Both the position numbers and the translations under genes were made by a program. Source: a virus (Duplodnaviria; Heunggongvirae; Uroviricota; Caudoviricetes). From it: DNA of 43,946 nt. The DNA lies in IMG/VR virus record IMGVR_UViG_3300045988_019467. One strand, written 5' to 3'. Below are positions 1,158 through 43,946 of this stretch, one piece after another. Position 1 is the stretch's first letter. Every line of letters starts with the position of its first letter. The notes beneath the pieces are model-generated. The model did not search any database. It saw only the letters and a list, made by a program, of their open reading frames with translations, and was not told the DNA's origin.

Positions 1158-2651
1158 ATGTTAACTATGAACGGTCAGAATCAGGGTGTTAAGACAAAAC
1201 ACTGGGAATGGCTGCATCACTTTAGTAAATGGCAGAAGGTCCGCCACGCTCTGGAAGGCGACCTTATTCGCTATCTGCGCAACGTCGGGAAGAACGAGCC
1301 TGACCCTACCTACGCGGCACAGCGCCAGGAAGAATACGAGAACGGCGCCATCTGCTACAACTTCACCAAGAGAACGCTGGCAGGGATGGTCGGCAGTGTC
1401 ATGCGCAAAGACCCTGAGCAGATTATCCCGCCTGAGCTTGAGTACCTGTTACGTAATGCAGACGGTTCCGGTGTCGGGCTGTGGCAGCACGCGCAGGACA
1501 CTTTGATGGAGATTGACTCGGTAGGCCGTGGCGGGTTGCTGGTGGACGCGCCAGAGACAGCCGCGGCAACGGCAGCCGAACAGAACGCGGGATTATTAAA
1601 CCCGGTCATTGCATTCTACACTGCTGAGAACATCATCAACTGGCGATTGACTCGCGTCGGTTCGGTTAACCGGGTGACAATGGTAGTGTTGCGTGAGGTA
1701 TGGGAATACTCGGAACCGGGTGCAGAGTTCGAAACAAAGTTCGGTGAGCAATACCGCGTTCTCGATTTGATTGACGGGCGCTACCGCCAGCGCATTTACC
1801 GCTTCGATGCCGAAGGTGGTGCTCAGGGTGAAGTAATCGAAATATTCCCGGAACTTGGCGAACAGTTGCGCGGCAAAATCCCGTTCACGTTCATTGGCGC
1901 AAGCAACAACGATGCAACCATCGACGATGCGCCTTTGCTACCGTTGGCTGAGCTCAATATCGGACATTTCCGCAACAGCGCTGACAATGAGGAATCCAGC
2001 TTCGTTGTAGGCCAGCCTACTTTGTTCATCGCCCCCGGTGAGAACATGAGCATGGAGCAGTGGAAAGAGGTTAACCCTCACGGCGTTCGTATGGGGTCGC
2101 GTTCAGGCCATAATATCGGTTACGGCGGCAACGCGTTTCTGGTTCAGGCAGGAGAGAACAACCTCGCCAAACAGAATATGCTGGATAAAGAGAACCAGGC
2201 CATCCAGATTGGCGCACAGCTTATCACCCCGACGCAGCAAATCACCGCCGAATCAGCCCGTCTGCAACGCGGCGCTGATACGTCCGTTATGGCGACAATC
2301 GCACGTAACGTAAGCATGGCTTATACAGATGCATTGCGCTGGGTAGCCGCGATGTTAGGGCTGCGTGAAGGCACAGAGATTGAGTTCAAACTGAATATGG
2401 AGTTCTTCCTGCAACCGATGACCGCGCAGGACCGTGCACAGTGGATGGCAGACATTAACGCTGGTCTGTTACCGGCTACTGCTTACTATGCTGCGTTGCG
2501 TAAAGCGGGTGTAACTGACTGGACTGACGAGGATATTCAGAACGCTATTGAAGATGCGCCGCTGCCATTAGGTGCTGTTGCTCAGGTACAGGGGGAAATT
2601 CCTGCTACAGCAAGACAGGAACAATCCCCGCAAGACCAACAGCAGCTATAA
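1158..2651 (+). CDS. portal protein (putative)
   Basis: 497-aa ORF directly after terL with RBS AAGAGGA 7 nt upstream; size and position typical of portal genes; no motif directly recognised. Confidence 0.65.
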   Translation: MLTMNGQNQGVKTKHWEWLHHFSKWQKVRHALEGDLIRYLRNVGKNEPDPTYAAQRQEEYENGAICYNFTKRTLAGMVGSVMRKDPEQIIPPELEYLLRNADGSGVGLWQHAQDTLMEIDSVGRGGLLVDAPETAAATAAEQNAGLLNPVIAFYTAENIINWRLTRVGSVNRVTMVVLREVWEYSEPGAEFETKFGEQYRVLDLIDGRYRQRIYRFDAEGGAQGEVIEIFPELGEQLRGKIPFTFIGASNNDATIDDAPLLPLAELNIGHFRNSADNEESSFVVGQPTLFIAPGENMSMEQWKEVNPHGVRMGSRSGHNIGYGGNAFLVQAGENNLAKQNMLDKENQAIQIGAQLITPTQQITAESARLQRGADTSVMATIARNVSMAYTDALRWVAAMLGLREGTEIEFKLNMEFFLQPMTAQDRAQWMADINAGLLPATAYYAALRKAGVTDWTDEDIQNAIEDAPLPLGAVAQVQGEIPATARQEQSPQDQQQL

Positions 2652-2654
2652 GAA

Positions 2655-2674
2655 AAGGCCCCGAAAGGGGCCTT
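2655..2674. terminator. bidirectional intrinsic terminator hairpin (AAGGCCCC-GAAA-GGGGCCTT)
   Basis: Perfect 8-bp GC-rich stem with GAAA loop, flanked by an A-run upstream and T-rich run downstream; sits between convergent genes; identical 20-mer at 12429..12448. Confidence 0.6.
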
Positions 2675-2678
2675 AATT

Positions 2679-2999
2679 TTATAGCTTAAGTTCTTCCGGC
2701 ACATCCGGCACGGCGTTATATTCCCACCATTCAGAACCATCGTATTCTCCGCGAGAAGACCATGTACCATCTTCGTACCAAATTACCCCGAAGAAGTTTT
2801 GACCGCCATAACCGTTGTGATATTCAAAATCAAGTGCGACCATTAGGCTTTCCCATTCTCCGCGGGAGTAATTCTCCCGCAGGATCCATTTACTCCCCTC
2901 AACGAAACCGTAATCCGCGTCATAGTCTGCAAACCAGGCGCATTTAACTACATCTTTACCATCCAGATGGGCGAGCAACTCTTCTTTAGCATTAATCAT
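2679..2999 (-). CDS. hypothetical small acidic, aromatic-rich protein (moron)
   Basis: 106-aa minus-strand ORF inside the plus-strand head module; strong RBS AAGAGGAAG upstream of ATG 2999; about 22 D/E versus about 8 K/R with many W/Y/F. Confidence 0.55.
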   Translation of the reverse strand: MINAKEELLAHLDGKDVVKCAWFADYDADYGFVEGSKWILRENYSRGEWESLMVALDFEYHNGYGGQNFFGVIWYEDGTWSSRGEYDGSEWWEYNAVPDVPEELKL

Positions 3000-3024
3000 G
3001 TTTTCTTCCTCTTTGCCGTTTAAC

Positions 3025-3056
3025 TGAATAGTACCCTATTATATTGGTGTCTGCAA
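3025..3056 (-). promoter_or_regulatory. class-1 promoter-like element, copy 1 (on minus strand: TTGCAG-N7-TATAAT-AGGGTACTATTCA)
   Basis: Perfect TATAAT on the minus strand about 40 nt upstream of ATG 2999; conserved about 30-bp motif repeated at 5180, 15061, 37806 and 39002, each oriented toward the adjacent operon. Confidence 0.5.
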
Positions 3057-3100
3057 ATATTATTTTTATGCGTTACACTGGCGATACTACAGGAGGGCAC

Positions 3101-4144
3101 ATGAGCTTACTTACATCCCTAATCAGCCACCAGATATGGCTGCAACGCGCCGCATCCGGTGAGGTGAAAGACCTTGCACCGTTTCTTCAGGAAATGCGGG
3201 ACGAAATCAAACGGCAGGTCCTGTTATTCGGCGACGACAGGCGAAGCACCGCGCGACTGAATAAACTGTTACGTGACCTTGAAGAAGCATTAACCGGACT
3301 TACGGGTGACTGGCGGACAAAGCTGACAGAAGACCTTAAGGAACTGGCGGCGTATGAGGCCGAGTGGAACGTAAAGACACTTACCGCCAACGTAGACGCG
3401 GAATTTGTTACGCCTACCGCCGAACAGGTGTGGGCCGCTGCCGAGTTTCAGCCCTTATCGTTAAGCGACAAGCCCGTCGATTTCACGAAACTTATGGAAG
3501 GCTGGGGTGAAACAGAAGTATCACGCCTCGTTACCGGCGTTAAGATGGGCTTTGTCCAGGGCCAGACGACACGGCAGATTATCAAGAGCGTGGTCGGCTC
3601 TGGCGGACTGGCGGACATCTCGGAACGCAATGCAGCTACCGTAATCCGCACTGCGCTGTCTCACGTGTCCAACGAAGCACGCAACGAGACGTACCGCCAG
3701 AACTACGACATCATCGAGAAATACGAATGGGTGTCAACGCTGGACAGCCGTACCAGTACGATTTGCAGAGCCAGAGACGGAATGACGTGGGAAATTGGTA
3801 AAGGGCCGATGCCTCCGGCCCATTTTGGGTGCAGAAGTACCACGGCCCCGGTAATTAGTTCCGAGTTTGACTTCCTCGATAAAGGCGCAAAACGAGCGGC
3901 TAAGGGCGCGGACGGCGGCACTCAGGTAAGCGAAGACACCACTTATTACGAGTTCCTCAAACAACAACCGGCATGGTTTCAGGACCAAGCGCTCGGGCCG
4001 ACCCGCGGTAAGATTTTCCGTAACAGCGGTATATCGCCGGAGGAGTTTCGCGTAATATCTGTAGATGGTTTCGGGAATCCGCTCACGCTTAAGCAGATGG
4101 CGGAACTCGATAAACGTGTTGCCGATTATCTGAAAGGGGAATAA
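3101..4144 (+). CDS. head morphogenesis protein (putative, Mu F / SPP1 gp7-like by position)
   Basis: ORF downstream of portal; start chosen at ATG 3101 with RBS AGGAGGG at 3091..3097; assignment is by synteny and size, not a recognised motif. Confidence 0.5.
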   Translation: MSLLTSLISHQIWLQRAASGEVKDLAPFLQEMRDEIKRQVLLFGDDRRSTARLNKLLRDLEEALTGLTGDWRTKLTEDLKELAAYEAEWNVKTLTANVDAEFVTPTAEQVWAAAEFQPLSLSDKPVDFTKLMEGWGETEVSRLVTGVKMGFVQGQTTRQIIKSVVGSGGLADISERNAATVIRTALSHVSNEARNETYRQNYDIIEKYEWVSTLDSRTSTICRARDGMTWEIGKGPMPPAHFGCRSTTAPVISSEFDFLDKGAKRAAKGADGGTQVSEDTTYYEFLKQQPAWFQDQALGPTRGKIFRNSGISPEEFRVISVDGFGNPLTLKQMAELDKRVADYLKGE

Positions 4145-4146
4145 TT

Positions 4147-4605
4147 ATGGGCTTTTTCAAAGTAACTGATGTGCCGTCGCGCCGTGTCGTCCAGTACGCT
4201 CGCGTGTCTGGCTCCGGGGAGAGCGTGGTGTTTATTGAAGATGAAAGTGTGCTCGGTACACCCGTAGACGATATGCCGTTTGCGGATAAAACCGGTATTG
4301 CGCTGCCAGCGGCGGGCATGCTTTACGAGATTCCGTATCTGGCCGATGCTGGTGATGTGTATTTCTCTATGCAACCGAAAGACACTGAATTGGTGGACGG
4401 CAGCGCAACTATCACTGTCGAAGTTAAGGCAGGCAAAGCGCCGTATGTTCTGACCTGGTACAAAGATGGTAAGGAAGTAGTAAACGCCCCGGAAGAGGCT
4501 TTGTCTCTGACGGTTAACGCGGTGGGTGAATACTTCGTTAAAGTTACTGATGCCGATGGTGTAGAGGCCGTCAGTAAAGCGGCGAAGGTCACCAAACCAG
4601 AATGA
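4147..4605 (+). CDS. Ig-like domain protein (possible capsid decoration or accessory structural protein)
   Basis: C-terminal region has an Ig-like beta-sandwich sequence pattern (TITVEVKAGKAPYVLTWYKDGKEV...GEYFVKVTDADG); a similar pattern recurs in 8306..8647. Confidence 0.5.
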   Translation: MGFFKVTDVPSRRVVQYARVSGSGESVVFIEDESVLGTPVDDMPFADKTGIALPAAGMLYEIPYLADAGDVYFSMQPKDTELVDGSATITVEVKAGKAPYVLTWYKDGKEVVNAPEEALSLTVNAVGEYFVKVTDADGVEAVSKAAKVTKPE

Positions 4606-4608
4606 TAT

Positions 4609-4629
4609 AAGGCCCCTTAACGGGGCCTT
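4609..4629. terminator. bidirectional intrinsic terminator hairpin (AAGGCCCC-TTAAC-GGGGCCTT)
   Basis: GC stem followed by TTAGTTTTATTT; between convergent genes 4147..4605 (+) and 4634..5155 (-); same stem sequence as 2655, 12429 and 24233. Confidence 0.6.
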
Positions 4630-4633
4630 AGTT

Positions 4634-5155
4634 TTATTTAAATCGCGCAGGCATTAACACCATAAAGGCCGTGTTTGAAAATGATATTTTGCATCCTCTG
4701 GTTTGGTCCTGGAAATCGAAACGAGAAATTTCATTTTTGTACGCCTTAGAAATCTTGTACGCGTCTGCCAAATAACGCAGAGTGAACCCTATACTATCGA
4801 CAACACCCGGTGTGATGTGCGCCACGCGTTTCCAGTCAGGAAAGTTTCCTTCTACAACATCTACCGGAAGTGTACATATAAGCGCGCGACTATCGTCATA
4901 GAAAGAAACACTGCCGTTGTCGTGGTCTACCTCTGCGTAGTTAAATTTAGAAGGCTCTCTCCCTTTGATATCAATGAGAACCCCTTTCTCAACGTTTGTC
5001 TTCACATTGTCGCAGAACAATCTATGCCCATTCGTAGACACTATCAACCCCTCAGGTTCTATGTAAAAAGCGTTCAAATAGTAGCGCACATCGTTTTTAG
5101 CCCTGCAGATTTTCGCCCCTACATACGCAGGGAAAGTAATTACCGTAGTAACCAT
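4634..5155 (-). CDS. hypothetical protein (moron, unknown function)
   Basis: 173-aa minus-strand ORF with RBS AGGAGATG before ATG 5155; own promoter-like element and terminator; no motif recognised. Confidence 0.55.
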   Translation of the reverse strand: MVTTVITFPAYVGAKICRAKNDVRYYLNAFYIEPEGLIVSTNGHRLFCDNVKTNVEKGVLIDIKGREPSKFNYAEVDHDNGSVSFYDDSRALICTLPVDVVEGNFPDWKRVAHITPGVVDSIGFTLRYLADAYKISKAYKNEISRFDFQDQTRGCKISFSNTAFMVLMPARFK

Positions 5156-5179
5156 TTCTCATCTCCTGTTTAAGTTAAC

Positions 5180-5211
5180 TGAATAGTACCCTATTATATT
5201 GGAGTATGCAA
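5180..5211 (-). promoter_or_regulatory. class-1 promoter-like element, copy 2 (on minus strand: TTGCAT-N7-TATAAT-AGGGTACTATTCA)
   Basis: Same motif as 3025..3056; TATAAT on the minus strand about 40 nt upstream of ATG 5155. Confidence 0.5.
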
Positions 5212-5263
5212 ACTATTTGTTTACGCATTCCAGTTATTACACTCAATTGTAAATGTTGGAATA

Positions 5264-5306
5264 AACTATTCGAATAGTTGACTTTTCACTAAAAATATGC
5301 TAAGCT
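5264..5306 (+). promoter_or_regulatory. 16-bp perfect palindrome AACTATTCGAATAGTT overlapping a sigma70-like promoter (TTGACT-17-TAAGCT)
   Basis: Perfect palindrome at 5264..5279 built from the same CTATTC/GAATAG half-sites as the repeated operator; TTGACT at 5278..5283 and TAAGCT at 5301..5306. Confidence 0.35.
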
Positions 5307-5487
5307 CCACCTGAGCTTGTGAAGTATGAACAAGCGACCGCGTCGCGGGCAGGTAACGGAGCTGGACGTAAGTCCTGAGTGTAGTTACGCTGACGCGTCC
5401 GGAAGGGCCATACTCTATTGCTTGTGTAAAAAAGTAACTGATTTACTGAGATTACGCCGTTTCTGTGTTTAAATGATAAGGACTAGC

Positions 5488-5512
5488 GCCCCGCTTTAAG
5501 GCGGGGCTTTAC
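5488..5512 (+). terminator. intrinsic terminator or attenuator hairpin just upstream of the spanin genes
   Basis: GCCCCGC-TTTAAG-GCGGGGC stem-loop followed by TTTACTT; lies 20 nt before the i-spanin RBS. Confidence 0.4.
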
Positions 5513-5531
5513 TTATCGAGAAAGGAGAAAC

Positions 5532-5918
5532 ATGAATCTTAAAGCAACTGTCGTAGCGGGAGCATGTTTCATCATCCTGGCTTACGCACACGGCATCTAC
5601 CAGTACCACAGCGGCTGGAACGAAGGCCGGGCGAATCTCGTTTCGCAGCAACAGCAGAAAGCACAGGCTGAGTTAGCGAAGAAAACACAACGGCAGCAGC
5701 AAGATGAATCGAAGGCCGCAGCCGCCGACAACGAAGGCAAGACGAAATCAGAGGTGATTACCCGTGAAGTCGTTAAGTACATTAAAACGCCTGGCCGCAG
5801 CGTGTGCACTTTCGACGATGCTCGCGTCCTGCTCAAGTCCCGCGCCGTCGCAAACGCCAATTCCATCCCCGGATACGACAATGATGCAGCCTCCGTGCAA
5901 ACTGGCGCCGCCAAGTAG
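5532..5918 (+). CDS. i-spanin (Rz-like inner-membrane spanin)
   Basis: N-terminal transmembrane helix (VVAGACFIILAYAHGIY) followed by a Q/A/K-rich coiled-coil-like region; an o-spanin-like lipoprotein ORF overlaps its 3' end in another frame; RBS AAAGGAGA. Confidence 0.65.
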   Translation: MNLKATVVAGACFIILAYAHGIYQYHSGWNEGRANLVSQQQQKAQAELAKKTQRQQQDESKAAAADNEGKTKSEVITREVVKYIKTPGRSVCTFDDARVLLKSRAVANANSIPGYDNDAASVQTGAAK

Positions 5919-11255: not shown

Positions 11256-12424
11256 ATATGGCTACAACTCCTTTTAAGGGCGCGACTACCGCGCAATTCT
11301 ATGTGGCGGAAACTACCCCTGGCGTAACACCGACTAACCCGGTATGGTCGCCGTTGCGTAACACAGGTGGCGTTCCTGCTATTACCCGTGACACGCTGAC
11401 CTCCAACGAACTGGACGGCAGCCGTGAAACTACATCCATCCGAACCGGTAACAAACAGGTTAGCGGTGAATACGCGGTCGAGCTTAGCTCTAAAAGCCAG
11501 GACGACTGGCTGGCGGGTGCTTTAGGCTCTACGTGGCAATCCGGTGTTTCTCTGTCGGGGCTGTCGATTACCGTCGCACCGGTGGGCAAGACGTTCACCC
11601 GTGCCGAAGGTAGCTTTATTACTGACGGTGTGGAAGTAGGCGACCTGATTGCGTTTACTGACTTAACCGGCGATAACGCTAAACCGTTTATTGTTACTGC
11701 GGTAGAGGCACTGGTGGTAACTGGTGCGGGTATTCAACACACTCTGATCGCCGAGACTGCTACTACCGCGGCTAAGACCGGCGACAAACTGGAAACCGGC
11801 AGCCAGTGTAAGACGTTCTCTATTCTCACCTGGTACAAGGGCCAGTGCGGCGGGACAGACGCGTACACGCTTACCAAAGGCGTGGAAGTTTCTGGTTTCA
11901 CTGTTGAACAGGCCGTTAACGCGATGGTGACGGGCAGCTTCCCGTTCATCGGGCGCAGCCAGGAGATTCTTACCGCGGCGCCGTCTGGTTCCGACTTCTC
12001 CTCTGTTACGTTTGGTGACGAGCCGTTCTCCTCGGTTGACGTTTCCGTGTTCGATGGTTCTACGCCGTTGCGTTGCGACAGCCTGACCATCACCAACGAC
12101 AACAGCGCGTCCGCACAGTTCGAACTCGGCAACACTAACGTTGCATTTGTTGAGCGTAGCCGCGCGGCTAACACCTTCTCTATCTCTGGCAAGCTGTACG
12201 ACATGGCGATGATTCAGAAGTTTATCAACGAACAGCAGGTAGAGATTAACTCTATTCTGGCTGGGGTAAACGGGGCTATGTCTTTCAGTTTGAAACGTGC
12301 AGAACTCACGGCGGTCACACCGGAGATTGGCGGACCTGAGTCAATCACTCAGTCTATTGAAGGCCAGGCTACTGGCAACCAGTACCAGTCGTCTATTGTT
12401 ATCCAGCGTATCACCTACGCATAA
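11252..12424 (+). CDS. major tail (tube) protein (putative)
   Basis: 390-aa Thr/Ser/Gly-rich ORF between neck genes and the tail chaperone/tape measure genes; followed by a strong terminator. Confidence 0.5.
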   Translation: MNMATTPFKGATTAQFYVAETTPGVTPTNPVWSPLRNTGGVPAITRDTLTSNELDGSRETTSIRTGNKQVSGEYAVELSSKSQDDWLAGALGSTWQSGVSLSGLSITVAPVGKTFTRAEGSFITDGVEVGDLIAFTDLTGDNAKPFIVTAVEALVVTGAGIQHTLIAETATTAAKTGDKLETGSQCKTFSILTWYKGQCGGTDAYTLTKGVEVSGFTVEQAVNAMVTGSFPFIGRSQEILTAAPSGSDFSSVTFGDEPFSSVDVSVFDGSTPLRCDSLTITNDNSASAQFELGNTNVAFVERSRAANTFSISGKLYDMAMIQKFINEQQVEINSILAGVNGAMSFSLKRAELTAVTPEIGGPESITQSIEGQATGNQYQSSIVIQRITYA

Positions 12425-12428
12425 AACT

Positions 12429-12454
12429 AAGGCCCCGAAAGGGGCCTTTTTCTT
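12429..12454. terminator. bidirectional intrinsic terminator (AAGGCCCC-GAAA-GGGGCCTT + TTTTTCTT)
   Basis: 20-mer identical to 2655..2674 followed by a T-run; separates the tail tube gene from the convergent moron operon. Confidence 0.65.
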
Positions 12455-12629
12455 ACTCACTTTTGAATGCCATTTCGTAGAAGTTAGTTAACTGACCTCT
12501 GTCACTCCGTTCTGTCATCTCTTTTGCGGCCTCTTCCTTGCTACCTACGGCGTAAATATCAACCCACTCATCCCATTCTTCGTCATATACGCGGATAACG
12601 TATATTGTTCCCATTGTGCCTTCACGCAT
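12453..12629 (-). CDS. hypothetical small acidic protein (last gene of moron operon; start uncertain)
   Basis: ORF in frame to 12659; start placed at the internal ATG 12629 to limit overlap with the upstream gene. Confidence 0.35.
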   Translation of the reverse strand: MREGTMGTIYVIRVYDEEWDEWVDIYAVGSKEEAAKEMTERSDRGQLTNFYEMAFKSE

Positions 12630-13191
12630 TTGGGTAAATCCCCAGGATTCTATTAGCAATCGCGGCCGCTGTTAATGTAATCTCGCCTGGGATGACCACA
12701 ACGTCATGACATACCGCACCATCAATACCGTACAGGTAACCACGACTATCCCCGTCAAACGTATAGCCGTCTCTGCGCAAGCGAACGATTTTTACGTCAT
12801 GCCCTGCGGCGACGATAGGGGACACTTCACTGGCGAATCCACCGTCTGACACTACAAAAACGTCATCGCCGTCGGGCAAGTTTTCAGCAAGATACTTACC
12901 GAAATAATCGCCGCCGAGAACCGGTTTAATGAATTGCTCAGAAATGGCAATCATGAACTGACGACGAGACAAACCATTAAGGAAACCCTCTGGCTTTTCT
13001 TTCCGCGCCCGGTCGTCGTAGCCGTCGAGAAACTCGTGGTACGCATCCGGACCTAACGCTGCCAGAGCAATATTGAACATTGGATTTTTGAAACTGGTAG
13101 CACCCTTCGCAAAGCCCATTTCTACCAGCGCCATAGCAAGTGTGTCTTTCCCACAACCCGCCGGGCCATTAAGAATAATTACCTTAGCCAT
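12622..13191 (-). CDS. P-loop kinase (dNMP kinase-like or polynucleotide 5'-kinase-like)
   Basis: N-terminal Walker A GPAGCGKDT resembling phage dNMP kinase and PNK P-loops; translationally coupled to the upstream HAD gene. Confidence 0.55.
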   Translation of the reverse strand: MAKVIILNGPAGCGKDTLAMALVEMGFAKGATSFKNPMFNIALAALGPDAYHEFLDGYDDRARKEKPEGFLNGLSRRQFMIAISEQFIKPVLGGDYFGKYLAENLPDGDDVFVVSDGGFASEVSPIVAAGHDVKIVRLRRDGYTFDGDSRGYLYGIDGAVCHDVVVIPGEITLTAAAIANRILGIYPNA

Positions 13192-13676
13192 TATTTATCG
13201 CTCCCGTGTGATTTTAAGTGTGTAGAATTCCCGTTACAGTCGTATTCAGTAACCGCGTGAGTGGTTATACCGAGTCCGCGGAAATGCTTTATTACCGCCG
13301 GAGAGTCGTCGAATGCGCACAATATTCTTTCCAGCCCGATAGCACGTAACACCTCTTCTTTAATTACGATGTCTTTTCTGTTGTCGTGTTTGCTGCGCAT
13401 GATTAACTGATAAAATTCGACGCGGTGGCGCTGCAACCACATTCTGGTTTCTTTTTCTGCATCATCACTGCGACCAGTTAAAATAATAACGGCGTAGCGA
13501 CGATTAAGGGCGTTACACAGTTCGATGTTATCTCTAATTGGTTCATCATCTTTGCACGCCATGTTAAAGGGTTTCCACGCCCATGTTTCGTTGTAGTTAT
13601 CTTTCGGCAGCAGGTGTAAACGATGTGTACCATCTGCCAATGTTCCATCTAAATCGAAAATTACAATATCTTTCAT
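13191..13676 (-). CDS. HAD-superfamily phosphatase (T4 Pnkp phosphatase-like motif I)
   Basis: N-terminal IVIFDLDGTL (DxDGT catalytic motif I of HAD phosphatases, as in the T4 Pnkp 3'-phosphatase domain). Confidence 0.6.
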   Translation of the reverse strand: MKDIVIFDLDGTLADGTHRLHLLPKDNYNETWAWKPFNMACKDDEPIRDNIELCNALNRRYAVIILTGRSDDAEKETRMWLQRHRVEFYQLIMRSKHDNRKDIVIKEEVLRAIGLERILCAFDDSPAVIKHFRGLGITTHAVTEYDCNGNSTHLKSHGSDK

Positions 13677-14803
13677 CCCAGCATCTCCGGTGAAATAGTT
13701 AAACGTGCGACCTCGCCGTATTCGGCGCTATAAGTAATTACATTTGCACTGCGTCCTGACATCCATCCGCCGCGAGAGGCGTAGGCGTCTTTCGCCGCTA
13801 AGGTGCGGTGTTGCTCAACAATCATGTTACGGCTTTCTACAATCTTCTGGTGGTGCAGGTGGCCTACGTGGGCGTAGCTGTACACGCTTTCGCCAAATGC
13901 TTTGCGGAACTTGGCAATCATAACCGGTTCGATAGCGTCGAATCGTGCTTTATGCCCGTGGTGAAAGAACAACGTCGTTTTGCCGTGTTGCACCATCTTG
14001 TAAACATCCGGCGACGTATCGACGAACACACGCGGCTCATTGTCGTACAGCGTGTTGAACATCTCAGCCAGCCAAATCATACCCGATTCGTCGTGGTTCC
14101 CTTGCACGATAAGCAAGCGAACGGTTTTATGTTTAACAAGCGCCATATCAACAACACGGCGCACCATACGAATCATGTAGCGAACCAGTTTCTGATAGCG
14201 AGTATCGGCGTCCAACACATGGCGCGACTCAGGTGTAACGGCGTCCAGGCTATCGAAGTGAGCAAAGTCACCCAGCAGGTTAATAACCCCGGTTCCCGCA
14301 TCTGGTGCTTTCTGAAACGCCGCATCGAACCAGCGAGAAAACAGGTCTTCCGCAATCTTCATATCCCAGTCGTCGCCGCTCTCGTCAGCCCAGGCCAGCA
14401 TACCGAGATGGAAATCAGATACCGTGTAAAGATTGAGCAGCTTGTCGTCGCGTTTGGTGCGGGCGGCTTTAACAGGCGCAACTGGAGTAATCTCTGACTT
14501 CATGCCCTCGATTACGGCTTTCATCAATTCGACCTGACGTTCGGCATCGGTATCGGTCTTAACCCATTGCAACTTAGTGTTGCCGAACTCGTCCACAAGT
14601 GACGATGTTCCTTTAATCTTGTAGCCGTCCGGCACAAGGTGGCTAACGTCACGCCCATGACCCACGCCTTTCTTCGCCAGCTTCGCTTTACGGATACGAA
14701 TAACGCGGTCTGAGATTCCGTACTTACGTGCGATATCAATAATCTTCATTCCGGCGTTCAATTCTTCCTGTAACTGTTCGTCGGTTATTTTCTTCTGGGC
14801 CAT
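13673..14803 (-). CDS. calcineurin-like metallophosphoesterase with N-terminal HTH domain
   Basis: MPE motifs D-x-H (VSDFHLG), GDxxH (LLGDFAHFD), GNHD (VQGNHDES), HHGH and GHLHH; N-terminal HTH-like segment (IARKYGISDRVIRIRKA); start at ATG 14803 with RBS GAGGAAG. Confidence 0.6.
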   Translation of the reverse strand: MAQKKITDEQLQEELNAGMKIIDIARKYGISDRVIRIRKAKLAKKGVGHGRDVSHLVPDGYKIKGTSSLVDEFGNTKLQWVKTDTDAERQVELMKAVIEGMKSEITPVAPVKAARTKRDDKLLNLYTVSDFHLGMLAWADESGDDWDMKIAEDLFSRWFDAAFQKAPDAGTGVINLLGDFAHFDSLDAVTPESRHVLDADTRYQKLVRYMIRMVRRVVDMALVKHKTVRLLIVQGNHDESGMIWLAEMFNTLYDNEPRVFVDTSPDVYKMVQHGKTTLFFHHGHKARFDAIEPVMIAKFRKAFGESVYSYAHVGHLHHQKIVESRNMIVEQHRTLAAKDAYASRGGWMSGRSANVITYSAEYGEVARLTISPEMLG

Positions 14804-14841
14804 GCTTACTTCCTCGTGTTTAGGATTTGTCTTATAGTAGC

Positions 14842-15033
14842 TTACTTCTCTTTCACGTTCGAGTTGCAAGCCCAGATTAAAATAAATACCCACGGCAGCA
14901 GAACCCAACCAAGAAACAGGTTAGCCATGAATATAGCTAACTTCGCTTTATGGTTACGGAAGTACGCAACCAGGAAAGGTGCGAAATAAGCGAGCAGTGC
15001 AAACAGAATTAAGGAAACTGGTAAACTGGACAT
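14842..15033 (-). CDS. small membrane protein (two predicted TM helices), first gene of moron operon
   Basis: Hydrophobic 63-aa ORF; start taken at ATG 15033 preceded by AAGGGG (an upstream ATG at 15048 is also possible). Confidence 0.4.
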   Translation of the reverse strand: MSSLPVSLILFALLAYFAPFLVAYFRNHKAKLAIFMANLFLGWVLLPWVFILIWACNSNVKEK

Positions 15034-15060
15034 TTTAAACCCCTTCATTGTTGGTGTAAG

Positions 15061-15092
15061 TGAATAGTACCCTATTATATTGGGGTGTGCAA
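15061..15092 (-). promoter_or_regulatory. class-1 promoter-like element, copy 3 (on minus strand: TTGCAC-N7-TATAAT-AGGGTACTATTCA)
   Basis: Same conserved motif; TATAAT on the minus strand about 40 nt upstream of ATG 15033. Confidence 0.5.
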
Positions 15093-15199
15093 GTAATATG
15101 GTAGAATAATTTTGCGCCTAGTGTCGCACACGAAAAGCGGGTGGTTCCCGTCTGGCGCATTTCCTTTAACCAGTAACCTCTTAACCAAAGGATTAAAGA

Positions 15200-22236: not shown

Positions 22237-24228
22237 ATGTCAAGCGGATGCGGTGATGTTTTAAGCCTGGCGGATTTACAAACCGCCAAGAAACACCAGA
22301 TTTTCGAAGCAGAGGTAATTACCGGTAAATCTGGCGGAGTAGCCGGGGGTGCAGATATTGATTACTCCACCAATCAGGTTACTGGACAGACCCAGAAGAC
22401 GTTACCTGCCGTGTTGCGCAGCCTGGGTCTAGCCCCTGCATCTTTCGATTTCACATCTGGGGGTACTTTAACTACTGACGACAGGAACAAGGCCGTGTTA
22501 TGGCCCTCTACGGACGGCGGCGACGGGGACTGGTACTATTGGGCAGGTAGTTTGCCGAAGACTATACCGGCATCATCTACACCCGCATCTTCCGGCGGTG
22601 TAGGGGGAGGCGCATGGTTGTCTGTTGGGGGGGTTATTTTACGACAGGACCTGGCTGCTTTTGGTGGAGCATCATTGATTGGTCCAGGTGTAATGTCCCG
22701 CGGAAACGATAAGTTTTCTATCATGCAAGGGAGAACCGGGGAGTATCAAAACGATGGTATGACATACGGGATAGGAGTTATCCTTACGGACCCTATCACT
22801 GGCACTATACCCAACGCCAGCACTGCAAAATTTAACTACCTTGCTATCATAGACGACCAGGTTAATGCTGTTGACGATTTAACGGCCGGGACAAAAGTTG
22901 ACGGGCTACAGGTAAACCATGTTTTCGGCGGCACCGCAGCCAAAGGTGGCAGGCACGCGGCAGAATTTGTATCTACCCATAAATCACCTACCAGTGTCGA
23001 CAACCCGGACCGTAACTATGTGGGTGTGGTTGGGTTGGCAGTGTCGCAAAATGGCGACGGAGGGGCAGTATCAACGTCCCCGAGCACATTCAAAGGTGGG
23101 TACTTTGGCGGGAATATGTACGGTAGTTTGAGCCCATCCGCCGTTGGTGTATATAACGTGACCGCATGTGAGTTTAACACAGTAGCCTCCGAAGGGTCGT
23201 CTGTATGGTATAGGTCAGGGATTCAGGTCATTGGTGGTGGGGCCGTACAAGGAAGCGCCGTAGACGTTGGGGTTGCCTTGTCGAATCTTTCGACAGCTAC
23301 GGTCCGATGGAGAAACGCCTTTCGTATAGGGAACATGAATGGGGGGCACGCGTTAGCATCGGACAGCAAAATACTTGTAGCGTTTACCGATGTGACGTCG
23401 ATCGCATCTGGGTTCGAGATACCAAAGTGCTCAACTACTATTTTAACATCCGGAGACGTTAATTTACAGAACGATAAATTAATCATGAGCGCTTCTGGGT
23501 CTGCTATTGAACTGGGAAGCACCACAGCCCCAGGTACGGCATACATAGACTTTCACTCAAGCGGAAACCCTAACGATTATGATGCAAGGGTTGTGGTTAG
23601 TGGCGGGGCGTCGTCTTCCGGGCAAGGCACTTATGGGGTTAACGCGGGTGTTATTCAGCTTAATGCTTCTACTGAAGTCATAGCCGCCGCCAACATAAGA
23701 CCCTCTACGGACAATACCATATCGAATGGCACCGCGTCTAGACGGTGGTCTGTGGTATACGCGGGAACCGGGACGATAAACACATCAAATGAAGACCTCA
23801 AAGTACGGGATAAGATACTTGAAGCCGAACGTGCCGCGGCCCTGGAAATAAAGAATGACATATGGAAATTTAGATTCAAAGATGCTATCGCCGAGAAAGG
23901 CAACGGTGCCAGGTATCACTTTGGCGTAGGTGCGCAATCTATAGGTAAAATTTTGCGTAAGCATGGACTGGACCCTGAAATGTACGCTTTCTACTGCCAC
24001 GATACCTGGGACGCGGAGTATGAGCCAATCATGGCTAAGCGTACCGTACTTAAGGACCAAGAAGTAACGGAAATAGACGACCTAACCGGCAAAACTATTA
24101 CTACCACTAAGACGATTGAAGTCGAGGAAGAGTACGACACCGGGGAAAAGAGATGCACCTTAGAGGCAGGTGAAAACTTCGGCGTTCGCTATGAGGAACT
24201 TCTTTGTTTTATTATGGCGGCCCTGTAA
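22237..24228 (+). CDS. tail fibre with C-terminal intramolecular chaperone (peptidase S74-like) domain
   Basis: C-terminal region (...RAAALEIKNDIWKFRFKD...YHFGVGAQSIGKILRKHGLDPEMYAFYCHDTWDAEY...) matches the self-cleaving chaperone domain of endosialidase and L-shaped tail fibres; Gly-rich central region. Confidence 0.65.
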   Translation: MSSGCGDVLSLADLQTAKKHQIFEAEVITGKSGGVAGGADIDYSTNQVTGQTQKTLPAVLRSLGLAPASFDFTSGGTLTTDDRNKAVLWPSTDGGDGDWYYWAGSLPKTIPASSTPASSGGVGGGAWLSVGGVILRQDLAAFGGASLIGPGVMSRGNDKFSIMQGRTGEYQNDGMTYGIGVILTDPITGTIPNASTAKFNYLAIIDDQVNAVDDLTAGTKVDGLQVNHVFGGTAAKGGRHAAEFVSTHKSPTSVDNPDRNYVGVVGLAVSQNGDGGAVSTSPSTFKGGYFGGNMYGSLSPSAVGVYNVTACEFNTVASEGSSVWYRSGIQVIGGGAVQGSAVDVGVALSNLSTATVRWRNAFRIGNMNGGHALASDSKILVAFTDVTSIASGFEIPKCSTTILTSGDVNLQNDKLIMSASGSAIELGSTTAPGTAYIDFHSSGNPNDYDARVVVSGGASSSGQGTYGVNAGVIQLNASTEVIAAANIRPSTDNTISNGTASRRWSVVYAGTGTINTSNEDLKVRDKILEAERAAALEIKNDIWKFRFKDAIAEKGNGARYHFGVGAQSIGKILRKHGLDPEMYAFYCHDTWDAEYEPIMAKRTVLKDQEVTEIDDLTGKTITTTKTIEVEEEYDTGEKRCTLEAGENFGVRYEELLCFIMAAL

Positions 24229-24232
24229 AACT

Positions 24233-24258
24233 AAGGCCCCAAACGGGGCCTTTTCTCT
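24233..24258. terminator. bidirectional intrinsic terminator (AAGGCCCC-AAAC-GGGGCCTT + TTCTCT)
   Basis: Same stem as 2655, 4609 and 12429; between the tail fibre gene and the convergent minus-strand replication module. Confidence 0.6.
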
Positions 24259-24394
24259 ACTCTTCTGATAACTTCTCCAGTACAAACTCCAGTTGCGCAT
24301 TAGCGGCATCTCTCTGTTGCCGTAGTCGTAGAACCTCCTCCTCAAGTTCCTTGATACGTTTTTGCAATGCCGGAATCGGGGCTATGATGTTCAT
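24257..24394 (-). CDS. small coiled-coil-like hypothetical protein
   Basis: 45-aa ORF whose ATG overlaps the stop of the upstream Toprim gene (ATGA); ends at the terminator. Confidence 0.3.
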   Translation of the reverse strand: MNIIAPIPALQKRIKELEEEVLRLRQQRDAANAQLEFVLEKLSEE

Positions 24395-27600: not shown

Positions 27601-27918
27601 TTATAATTCCTTATATTGTTGGGGTATGTGCTTACTATAATAGTTCGCTATTAGGGTGTCAACCTGTTTTATCGAACCAACGACAAAAACATTTGCACCG
27701 CGTTTACGCATACGCTCATGCTCTCGTAACTGGTGGGGGTCTGGCTTCGTGTTTTCGTCTTTCTTAACCTCGACGAACCAGACGATGCTGTAGGGGAGAA
27801 TTACCAGCAGGTCAGGAGCGCCCACTCTATTTTCGTAGGAAAGTTTACGAACGAGGCCCCCCAGGGCCTCGAATCGCTCTTTTGCGTATTTCTGCACGCG
27901 CCCCTCAGGCGTACTCAT
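27601..27918 (-). CDS. VRR-NUC domain nuclease (PD-(D/E)xK fold)
   Basis: PD...(D/E)xK-like signature (GAPDLLVIL ... VEVKK) in an approximately 105-aa protein; start taken at ATG 27918. Confidence 0.55.
   Translation of the reverse strand: MSTPEGRVQKYAKERFEALGGLVRKLSYENRVGAPDLLVILPYSIVWFVEVKKDENTKPDPHQLREHERMRKRGANVFVVGSIKQVDTLIANYYSKHIPQQYKEL
27623..27662 (-). promoter_or_regulatory. class-2 promoter, copy 7 (minus strand: TTGACACC-N12-TATTATAGT), inside the 3' end of the VRR-NUC CDS
   Basis: Minus-strand TTGACA (plus 27657..27662) and TATAGT (plus 27634..27639) with about 18-bp spacer; near-identical elements at 31214..31242 and 34199..34228. Confidence 0.5.
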
Positions 27919-31213: not shown

Positions 31214-31242
31214 ACTATAATAGCTAACTATTCAGGTGTCAA
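31214..31242 (-). promoter_or_regulatory. class-2 promoter, copy 8 (minus strand: TTGACACC-N12-TATTATAGT)
   Basis: Minus-strand TTGACA (plus 31237..31242) and TATAGT (plus 31214..31219); about 50 nt upstream of the SSB-like ATG at 31161. Confidence 0.5.
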
Positions 31243-33153: not shown

Positions 33154-33407
33154 TGGTCAATTAAATGTCGTGTCTGGTGGTGGCAATGCATCGCCCATCC
33201 ATACATCGACTCGAAGACATAAAAGTCAGGTTTGGCGAAAGTCGTGCGCTTAATCTGCGACACGTGACGGCCTATATCTTTAGGCCGTGGTACTTTGCCT
33301 AAGTACGCCATCTCTTCCATCTGGTGCGCACCGGACGGCGCGCGCAACAGCCATAACGCCTCTGTGTTATCCCGCCGGTCAACGGCGCGGTAGAGTTGGT
33401 AAATCAT
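33135..33407 (-). CDS. hypothetical protein
   Basis: Start set at internal ATG 33407 (RBS GAGGG) to avoid overlap with the upstream gene; His/Cys-containing C-terminus. Confidence 0.35.
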   Translation of the reverse strand: MIYQLYRAVDRRDNTEALWLLRAPSGAHQMEEMAYLGKVPRPKDIGRHVSQIKRTTFAKPDFYVFESMYGWAMHCHHQTRHLIDQWESRV

Positions 33408-33419
33408 AATTCTGACCCT

Positions 33420-33443
33420 CAGTTTGGTGCCCTCAATAGCGAG
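33420..33443 (-). other. perfect 9-bp stem hairpin (GGTGCCCTC-N6-GAGGGCACC) in intergenic spacer
   Basis: Perfect inverted repeat between two co-oriented minus-strand genes; no U-tract. Confidence 0.35.
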
Positions 33444-33462
33444 GGCACCATAAGTTAAGTAG

Positions 33463-33990
33463 TTATTCTTCTTCGAAATACTTGTTCTTGATTGCCGTGA
33501 GGCGTTCCAGATATTCAGCCAGGTCTTCGTCTTTAATCGCGGCAATCTTCATTTTCTTACCGGTGAACTCTTCCAGTATTTCATCGGAATCGTCGCACGC
33601 GGCATCGCTCGGACCTTCGTTAATCGCATCGTCGATAGCCTGAATCTGGTCACGCAGAGACTGGTAATCGACTTCTTCTTCCGGCTCCGGTGTTGGTTCC
33701 TCTACAGGTTTAGGGGCTGGTTTTGATTTGCCAGGCTTGCGTTTCGGCTTCTCATCTTCTGCCGGTTTAGTGTCAACGACGTCTTCACCTTCAACCGGGA
33801 TTTCTTTCGCCTTCTCGACTTCTTCAAGTGCTTTAGCCAGTTCTTTTTTAACTGTCTCTACCCCCGTTACCGCGACGTCAACAGTCAATTCACCTACAGA
33901 TTTATTAGTCGGTTGTTTCACACTGTTCGCAGCAATCAGTTCATGCGCAACTACGAAACGTTCCAGTAATACTAAGAATTTCTCTAACAT
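33463..33990 (-). CDS. hypothetical acidic, Pro/Glu/Lys-rich protein
   Basis: 175-aa ORF with low-complexity PKPx/EEE region; stop and start coupled to neighbours. Confidence 0.45.
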   Translation of the reverse strand: MLEKFLVLLERFVVAHELIAANSVKQPTNKSVGELTVDVAVTGVETVKKELAKALEEVEKAKEIPVEGEDVVDTKPAEDEKPKRKPGKSKPAPKPVEEPTPEPEEEVDYQSLRDQIQAIDDAINEGPSDAACDDSDEILEEFTGKKMKIAAIKDEDLAEYLERLTAIKNKYFEEE

Positions 33991-34187: not shown

Positions 34188-34228
34188 GGTATGTGCTAAC
34201 TATAATAGCGAACTATTCATGGTGTCAA
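34188..34228 (-). promoter_or_regulatory. class-2 promoter, copy 6 (minus strand: TTGACACC-N13-TATTATAGT)
   Basis: Minus-strand TTGACA (plus 34223..34228) and TATAGT (plus 34199..34204); divergent from the Cro-like gene. Confidence 0.5.
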
Positions 34229-37805: not shown

Positions 37806-37838
37806 CTTGCGCACCCCAACATAATAGGATACTATTCA
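37806..37838 (+). promoter_or_regulatory. class-1 promoter-like element, copy 4 (TTGCGC-N7-CATAAT-AGGATACTATTCA)
   Basis: Same motif as the minus-strand copies, here on the + strand about 45 nt upstream of ATG 37870. Confidence 0.5.
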
Positions 37839-38840: not shown

Positions 38841-38885
38841 CAGGTGGTGTAACAGGTCAATAGCTTACTATTTTACTGAGTGACT

Positions 38886-39001: not shown

Positions 39002-39033
39002 TTGCACACTGGGATAGAATAGGCTACTATTCA
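39002..39033 (+). promoter_or_regulatory. class-1 promoter-like element, copy 5 (TTGCAC-N7-TAGAAT-AGGCTACTATTCA)
   Basis: Same motif; + strand, about 45 nt upstream of ATG 39062 and just after the terminator. Confidence 0.5.
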
Positions 39034-43757: not shown

Positions 43758-43946
43758 TGGATATCCCATTAACAGAACCCCAACAGGATTTTGTATTCAG
43801 TACAAAGACACATCCAGCTATTGTCGCGGGACTGGGGGCAGGCAAGTCCCGCGCGGCCACTATGCGTCTCCTGTATCTCATGTTGCGCGAGCGCGGGATA
43901 AACACCCTATACACCATGCCTACGTATGACCTGTTGAAGCTGCGCG
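43757..43946 (+). CDS. terL: terminase large subunit, N-terminal part (continues at window start)
   Basis: ATG 43757 overlapping the terS stop; Walker A GLGAGKS; frame continues into 1..1145 through the duplicated 99 bp. Confidence 0.8.
   Translation, partial: MDIPLTEPQQDFVFSTKTHPAIVAGLGAGKSRAATMRLLYLMLRERGINTLYTMPTYDLLKLR
43848..43946. repeat. 99-bp exact duplicate of window bases 1..99 (circular-closure overlap)
   Basis: Direct comparison: the last 99 nt equal the first 99 nt, and the duplication lies inside the terL coding sequence. Confidence 0.9.

Follow-up and report, generated by a model that had tools for sequence, protein, structure and literature searches.

A known relative of the gene reported here is T5.067 (T5p065; YP_006895.1) of bacteriophage T5, a small stand-alone gene for an acidic protein that is embedded in the tRNA cluster of the T5 early region. 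In T5-family phages, a deleted region of ~8 kb has been identified experimentally as an anti-defence island carrying tRNA-Tyr and the anti-retron Rad (Azam et al., bioRxiv 10.1101/2023.03.15.532788). T5.067 lies outside the T5 island examined in that work and is kept in the st0 mutant (T5st0, AY692264, locus L149, 9209-9684; T5, locus L001, 4001-4348), with the st0 deletion junction ~120 bp away. We infer that the st0 deletion is the published island region, because the difference of 121,750 minus 113,238 amounts to 8,512 bp and the deleted content includes tRNA-Tyr and the Toprim gene T5.076. T5st0 was rejected as proof that T5.067 is dispensable, since the gene is kept and the deletion begins just beside it. 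No publication on any member of the family came up when the literature was searched for its locus tag, accession or PHROG identifier; a DruSM1 knockout screen was set aside, as it concerns an unrelated phage.

Other described systems resemble the locus in composition or in arrangement. The DNA mimics Ocr, ArdA, Arn, Ugi, gp5.9 and AcrIIA4 are small, strongly acidic, cytoplasmic products of accessory phage genes, for which early expression is expected. They share neither sequence nor structural similarity with the 106-aa protein considered here, whose family differs from them in its Arg/Trp/Tyr-dominated conservation and in its absence from plasmids, where ArdA- or KlcA-type anti-restriction genes are found. 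Tad1, Tad2, Acb2, Gad1 and anti-CRISPRs with solved structures likewise showed no fold or sequence similarity to the protein. Morons, a concept said to go back to Juhala et al. in 2000, are promoter-gene-terminator units that sit between conserved genes, show presence/absence polymorphism and deviate in GC content, all of which the present locus shares; classical morons are expressed from prophages, whereas the present phage is taken to be virulent (see below). The promoter of this cassette also belongs to the phage's own repeated class. Accessory genes of phages have been the subject of dedicated screens (Silas et al., bioRxiv 10.1101/2023.04.06.535777).

The stretch of DNA analyzed (43,946 nucleotides, hereafter the window) is, as read from its sequence, a Kagunavirus-like (Guernseyvirinae) genome from gut metagenomes, and on either side of the gene under study it matches Kagunavirus genomes at 90-95%. 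A perfect 99-nt direct repeat (1-99 = 43848-43946) probably reflects end overlap from circular assembly, the complete genome then measuring ~43.85 kb. From Kagunaviruses in general, we take the phage to be virulent. The gene under study opens with ATG on the minus strand and encodes a protein of 106 aa and 12.4 kDa (Table 1), with 22 D+E residues (21%) against 8 K+R, a net charge of -14 and a pI of 4.22. Its 20 aromatic residues comprise 7 Trp, 8 Tyr and 5 Phe. Among 67 non-overlapping, greedily chosen ORFs of the window, it ranks first for low pI, for negative charge per residue and for aromatic fraction. The high negative charge and pI of about 4 that characterize DNA mimics are thus present, and these values (pI 4.2, charge -14, 21% D/E) are presumably similar to those of the small mimics Ugi and AcrIIA4. 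GC content falls from ~0.54 in the flanks to 0.45-0.48 over the gene and its upstream region. The gene is a real, horizontally exchanged accessory gene of a Kagunavirus-like siphophage; that it is real follows from hundreds to thousands of homologues in which the start and a sequence motif are conserved.

Table 1. Coordinates of the 106-aa gene, its expression signals and the genes bounding its slot (positions in the window).
Feature	Position	Strand	Basis or remark
106-aa acidic, aromatic-rich protein, CDS	2679..2999 (stop codon included)	-	ORF list, composition, phrog_3972 match
Shine-Dalgarno-like AGAGGA	3007..3012	-	8 nt 5' of ATG, read from sequence
Promoter-like cassette	3020..3077 (58 nt)	-	repeat family D2; further minus-strand copies 5175-5232, 15056-15113
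TATAATAG-N4-CTATTCA copies, minus strand	3025-3043, 5180-5198, 15061-15079, 38857-38875	-	motif count
TATAATAG-N4-CTATTCA copies, plus strand	27636-27654, 31216-31234, 34201-34219, 37820-37838, 39015-39033	+	motif count
Bidirectional intrinsic-terminator-like hairpin AAGGCCCC-GAAA-GGGGCCTT	2655..2674	both	terminator scan
Portal gene, left slot boundary, conserved	1158..2651	+	phrog_145, E=1e-148; Pfam DUF4055 on identical contig
Mu-F-type head-morphogenesis gene, right slot boundary, conserved	3044..4144	+	phrog_241, E=3e-152; Phage_Mu_F

The gene occupies a slot between two conserved virion genes, and the content of this slot varies among relatives. In fBC-Eco01, phage 26 and SHAK7693 it holds a gene for a 173-aa clamp-like protein, and in the Kagunavirus LM08P1 an unrelated 94-aa ORF. 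Comparison with fBC-Eco01 and LM08P1 showed that the promoter region is kept ahead of all three cargoes (106, 173 and 94 aa). Because slot content differs between relatives while the promoter region is retained, the 106-aa gene is best regarded as exchangeable accessory cargo; this replacement polymorphism among close relatives accompanies the deviant GC content. The 94-aa ORF of LM08P1 (locus L132, 565-849, minus strand) matches phrog_1273 and stands behind the same promoter region. The identical 106-aa protein is encoded on four independent metagenomic contigs of ~43.9 kb from human gut, and a 93%-identical version fills the same portal/head slot in another set of ~44-kb contigs. No deposited phage matching the window covers the gene itself. 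Among ~100 related deposited Guernseyvirinae/Kagunavirus genomes, Salmonella phage Shemara is the only carrier of a homologue (77% identity), which occupies a different antisense slot, flanked by spanin and scaffold genes. One further contig (L136; JGI 3300008270, 2692 nt), which places the gene beside ABC-transporter genes, was rejected as most likely a chimeric assembly, because its bases 2137-2692 are 100% identical to 3218-2663 of the window while the remainder is unrelated and the break falls inside the head-morphogenesis gene.

Several side observations concern the surroundings of the slot. The head-morphogenesis gene was called as 347 aa on contig L134, with a Phage_Mu_F match, and its true start is probably the ATG at 3101. 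In close relatives of the window phage (contigs L138-L143), terminase and portal genes are separated by an inserted HNH endonuclease gene, and the head-morphogenesis gene is called at 645 aa against ~347-366 aa in the window. Three antisense units lie within the plus-strand virion-assembly module of the window and share one promoter cassette: 2679-2999, 4634-5155 and 12453-14908, all on the minus strand. The 173-aa clamp-like gene found in the slot of relatives is present here in the second of these (4634-5155); database labels call its product 'DNA polymerase III sliding clamp' or 'RusA-like resolvase', and it matches phrog_3007 and, weakly, the processivity factor phrog_947, without a Pfam domain. 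Three of the four products of the third unit (12453-14908) match phrog_704 (metallophosphoesterase, 'DNA repair exonuclease'), phrog_415 (PNKP-type HAD phosphatase) and phrog_139 (dNMP-kinase-like P-loop protein); the fourth comes from a 68-aa ORF that ranks second in the window for acidity and aromatic content.

The gene is framed by expression signals of its own. The terminator-like hairpin at its 3' end is common to the portal gene on the plus strand and the 106-aa gene on the minus strand. A GC-rich hairpin of the form AAGGCCCC(G/A)AA(A/C)GGGGCCTT (family D3) has three copies in the window (2648-2684, 12422-12458 and 24226-24262), and the both-strand result of the terminator scan refers to the copy at 2655-2674. 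Upstream, the 58-nt cassette contains TTGCAG (3056-3051), an exact TATAAT (3043-3038), TACTAT (3033-3028) and a palindrome-like TAATAG-N4-CTATT. Each of its three copies precedes a minus-strand unit, and a 28-mer within it occurs three times against an expectation of 0. Nine copies of the core TATAATAG-N4-CTATTCA were counted in the window against 0.02 expected; six of them fall between 27.6 and 39.0 kb, and in five of the nine a TTGCAN-17-TACTAT can also be read. The motif has the appearance of a promoter class used throughout the phage genome, perhaps combined with an operator to which a phage regulator binds. The cassette ahead of the 106-aa gene is therefore a member of a repeated class of putative promoters. 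At the sequence level, the gene has its own promoter-like element and terminator, although a generic sigma-70 scan made no minus-strand call at the scan threshold. An Rfam search over 2000-5600 detected no RNA family; a match to Atu_C8 at 2640-2750 was discarded, as it is below the Rfam threshold and overlaps the terminator hairpin.

Most of what the preliminary description had said about the locus holds up. The ORF list agrees with its position, strand and 106-aa size, and the PHROG and Pfam matches of the flanking genes place it between portal and head-morphogenesis genes as described. The counts of 22 D/E and 8 K/R are reproduced, with 20 aromatic residues in place of the 21 given. Of the signals it listed, the strong ribosome-binding site corresponds to AGAGGA 8 nt ahead of the ATG, the bidirectional terminator to the hairpin scored on both strands, and the class-1 promoter-like element to a genuine repeated element with nine core copies and a presumed promoter activity. 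The designation as a moron or accessory gene fits an autonomous cassette in a variable slot for which relatives carry other cargo.

The protein belongs to phrog_3972, a very large, uncharacterised family that is restricted to phages and prophages. Its match to the profile is full-length (E=6e-24, residues 1-105), and a tblastn match in T5 (33247-33552) covers 99% of the query at 46.7% identity. Homologues are present in at least 200 T5-like genomes. A word-indexed search returned 424 family clusters, and an exhaustive profile search 2462 representatives at 50% identity. A divergent Firmicutes branch, with at least 7463 clusters at 90% identity, includes members from Streptococcus prophages, Lactococcus phage 4268 (orf17) and Skunavirus ASCC397; hhalign gave a probability of 99.4% that the two branches are homologous. 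Hosts of the family include Proteobacteria, Bacteroidota, Bacillota, Actinomycetota, Campylobacter and candidate-phylum bins, and a search of 72,556 plasmids found no homologue. The T5 protein shares with the window protein full-length homology at ~47% identity, the length class and the invariant motif; its gene is co-directional with early genes, whereas the window copy is antisense in a virion-assembly module. Members of the Firmicutes branch (4268 orf17, ASCC397 gp36 and the Streptococcus 'Prophage Pi3 protein') have the same predicted fold and the N3/E7/Y/G/R-x-EYDGSEWW pattern, and their genes are located in early or replication-proximal regions. They differ in overall identity (~30%), in the lack of conservation of W74 and Q67, and in a C-terminal helical extension of ~20-30 aa.

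Conservation across 378 representatives from both branches is concentrated in a mixed set of residues. N3, E7, F52, Y60, G65, G78, W80, R83 and E85, together with Y86, D87, G88, E90, W91, W92 and P98, are 91-100% conserved. The signature N3, E7, Y60, G65, R83-x-EYDGSEWW, P98 is complete in the window protein and is 88-100% conserved in the same set, S89 being the lowest, and homologues share the start MxNAKxE. About nine positions carry an acidic residue in 70% or more of these members. With family medians of -10 for net charge, 4.5 for pI and 17 for aromatic residues, acidity and aromatic (Trp/Tyr) richness are family-wide properties.

Searches for a characterized relative were negative. Pfam and NCBIfam searches of the 106-aa protein gave no match at E<=1, Ocr, ArdA and KlcA/ArdB included, neither library has a model of the family, and ten longer family members carry heterogeneous extensions without a Pfam domain. 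PADLOC yielded no significant match, the hit to PglX (E=0.009) being treated as noise, and a match to the phrog_16544 'excisionase' was not meaningful, as it covers only 16 motif residues. Reading GYGGQ as a GGQ release-factor-like motif or as a P-loop was rejected, because G66 varies and members of the Firmicutes branch often have another residue in place of Q67. Identity with SaV (p2 ORF26, AbiV sensitivity) was rejected after comparison of the family HMM with the p2 early proteins (SaV, E=0.67). A link to lactococcal Abi-sensitivity genes was likewise dropped, since SaV is a different protein and p2, bIL170 and P008 all lack the family.

The product is predicted to be a soluble, compact alpha/beta protein of ~12 kDa. 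An AlphaFold2 model built from a 49-sequence input (pLDDT 88.9, pTM 0.79) shows a helix-strand-strand-helix arrangement followed by a four-stranded sheet, with helix 4-12, strands 18-25 and 37-40, helix 46-55 and strands ~59-60, 69-75, 80-86 and 89-95. An independent AlphaFold2 model of a Streptococcus prophage member, computed from its own alignment, has the same topology plus a C-terminal helix (pLDDT 83.6). Strand periodicity would put R83, E85, E90 and W92 on a single face of the C-terminal hairpin, which turns at the invariant D87-G88. Sequence searches of the PDB with the single protein and with the family profile returned nothing significant. Fold searches against solved structures found no close match and no solved inhibitor, sponge or DNA mimic, and those against BFVD retrieved uncharacterised phage proteins only. 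The 'GG-domain' fold of ILEI, FAM3 and the POMGnT1 stem is alike in size (~100 aa) and mixed alpha/beta content; its scores are below the usual significance, with 6-12% identity and without sequence-profile support, and we regard the resemblance as a lead, not as a classification.

Gene neighbourhoods were compared around 113 family members, where 819 neighbouring ORFs fell into 643 clusters without a recurrent partner gene. Pfam domains of the neighbours are of early-region type, with replication, recombination and nin-region functions (DnaB/Toprim, DNA polymerase A, SSB, RecT, Rad52-like, NinB and NinG), with methylases, HNH, YopX and metallophosphoesterases also represented. The occasional fusions of family members are heterogeneous. 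Gad2 is encoded one or three called genes downstream of a family member in two independent metagenomic phages, and no enrichment near known anti-defence genes was found past these two contexts. A tRNA gene lies within 5 kb at ~15 of 110 non-T5-like loci, with tRNA-Arg(UCU) recurring, which we treat as a weak lead. In six non-T5 environmental contigs (L052, L054, L073, L090, L104 and L110), tRNA-Arg(UCU) is ~1-3 kb from the family member.

These data bear unequally on the possible explanations of the gene. That it is a spurious or decaying, functionless ORF is suggested by its small size and antisense position and by nothing further; thousands of homologues with conserved start, length and motif, a confident fold prediction, dedicated expression signals and the identical protein on four independent contigs speak against it, and with the conservation data this reading is effectively refuted, its chance being close to nil. 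A classical DNA mimic, the suggestion of the preliminary description, would imitate the phosphate backbone of double-stranded DNA with an acidic surface and so block a DNA-binding defence enzyme, the targets being, for example, type I restriction-modification, BREX, RecBCD or uracil-DNA glycosylase, on the model of Ocr, ArdA, Arn, Ugi and gp5.9. The composition of the protein and its accessory position in a variable slot agree with this, as does the acidity of its relatives, and since known mimics share no common fold, the missing fold match is not decisive. However, no Pfam match to Ocr, ArdA or KlcA and no structural match to solved mimics was obtained. The most strongly conserved residues include Arg, Trp, Tyr, Asn and Gly besides carboxylates, proteins from enterobacterial and environmental phages share 50% identity, which we find unusually high for mimics, and the family is missing from plasmids, a usual home of anti-restriction mimics. 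A mixed polar and aromatic motif conserved at 91-100% from enterobacterial to Firmicutes phages suggests one specific site and not a generic carboxylate array, and we consider a classical mimic quite unlikely.

Alternatively, the invariant Asn, Glu, Arg, Glu, Asp and Glu with stacked Trp/Tyr could form a pocket by which a small-molecule sponge or mini-enzyme sequesters or converts a nucleotide-type molecule such as an immune signal, as Tad1, Tad2 and Acb2 do. Near-invariant polar and aromatic residues across distant hosts would be expected for a universal small-molecule ligand, the stand-alone format of ~100 aa resembles that of known sponges, and nucleotide-metabolism and phosphoesterase genes are among the neighbours. 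Against these points, neither fold nor sequence matched Tad1, Tad2, Acb1, Acb2 or PDB entries of any nucleotide-binding protein, neither a GGQ nor a P-loop is conserved in the Gly-rich loop GYGGQ, and the strong negative charge disfavours binding of an anionic nucleotide; we regard this possibility as unlikely. Likewise unlikely, if slightly less so, is a helper role within the phage itself, in DNA replication, recombination or nucleotide/RNA metabolism; the protein would then be a useful but dispensable auxiliary subunit or regulator of a phage enzyme, not directed at the host. Such a role would accord with the mostly co-directional position of family genes among those for DnaB/primase, DNA polymerase A, SSB, RecT, Rad52-like, NinB, NinG, methylase and HNH proteins, with the early location of the T5 copy and with conservation in the T5-like genomes. 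Yet there is no conserved partner gene, carriers include phages whose replication machineries are unrelated, members of the same genus often differ in whether they have the gene (besides p2, bIL170 and P008, nearly all Kagunaviruses lack it), and the window copy lies away from replication genes, in a cargo slot.

The explanation we favour, tentatively and at somewhat less than an even chance, is a counter-defence or host-takeover protein that acts on a host or defence component through the invariant motif. Under this explanation, the 106-aa protein would probably be made early, as the shared promoter motif suggests, together with the other units of the same promoter class. It would probably act alone, since no partner recurs among the 643 neighbour clusters, and stoichiometrically. 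It would bind and block a component conserved across bacterial phyla, such a conserved target being suggested by the breadth of the family (2462 representatives at 50% identity, at least 7463 clusters at 90% identity for the Firmicutes branch, and hosts of several phyla). The target would most likely be a basic, nucleic-acid-handling host or defence protein, contacted through N3 and E7 in helix 1 and through the invariant face that R83, E85, E90 and W92 would form on the C-terminal beta-hairpin. The protein would then act as a specific protein decoy or inhibitor, unlike a generic mimic that copies the rod shape of double-stranded DNA. So many invariant polar residues would fit a small enzyme or a ligand binder just as well.

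Of what the preliminary description put forward, the accessory cassette and the acidic, aromatic composition, which is conserved family-wide, are supported; the anti-defence function itself is something we infer. Clear homology to a structural or housekeeping protein, which would speak against the candidacy, was looked for and none was found. The position of T5.067 beside the T5 anti-defence island adds slight, circumstantial support, and the two contexts with Gad2 downstream are a circumstantial link of the same kind. Taken at this strength, the 106-aa protein is a reasonable, as yet unproven counter-defence candidate.

The gene adds one member to a family that is catalogued yet uncharacterised, and in itself the finding is modest. 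What makes the family worth pursuing is its size, a near-invariant motif, the lack of annotation and a T5 homologue that lies beside a proven anti-defence island. With the genetic tools of T5, it offers a cheap and well-defined target for functional screening, and a positive functional result would annotate thousands of phage genes together. Swappable antisense slots with a shared promoter are also where other accessory functions of Guernseyvirinae may be sought. It is possible, though doubtful, that the T5.067/EYDGSEWW family represents a phage-wide inhibitor with a new fold, directed at one bacterial component conserved from Proteobacteria to Firmicutes; the target might be, for example, a defence nuclease of wide occurrence or an enzyme central to nucleic-acid handling. 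If so, these proteins would be among the most widely distributed, and overlooked, counter-defence or host-takeover proteins of phages.
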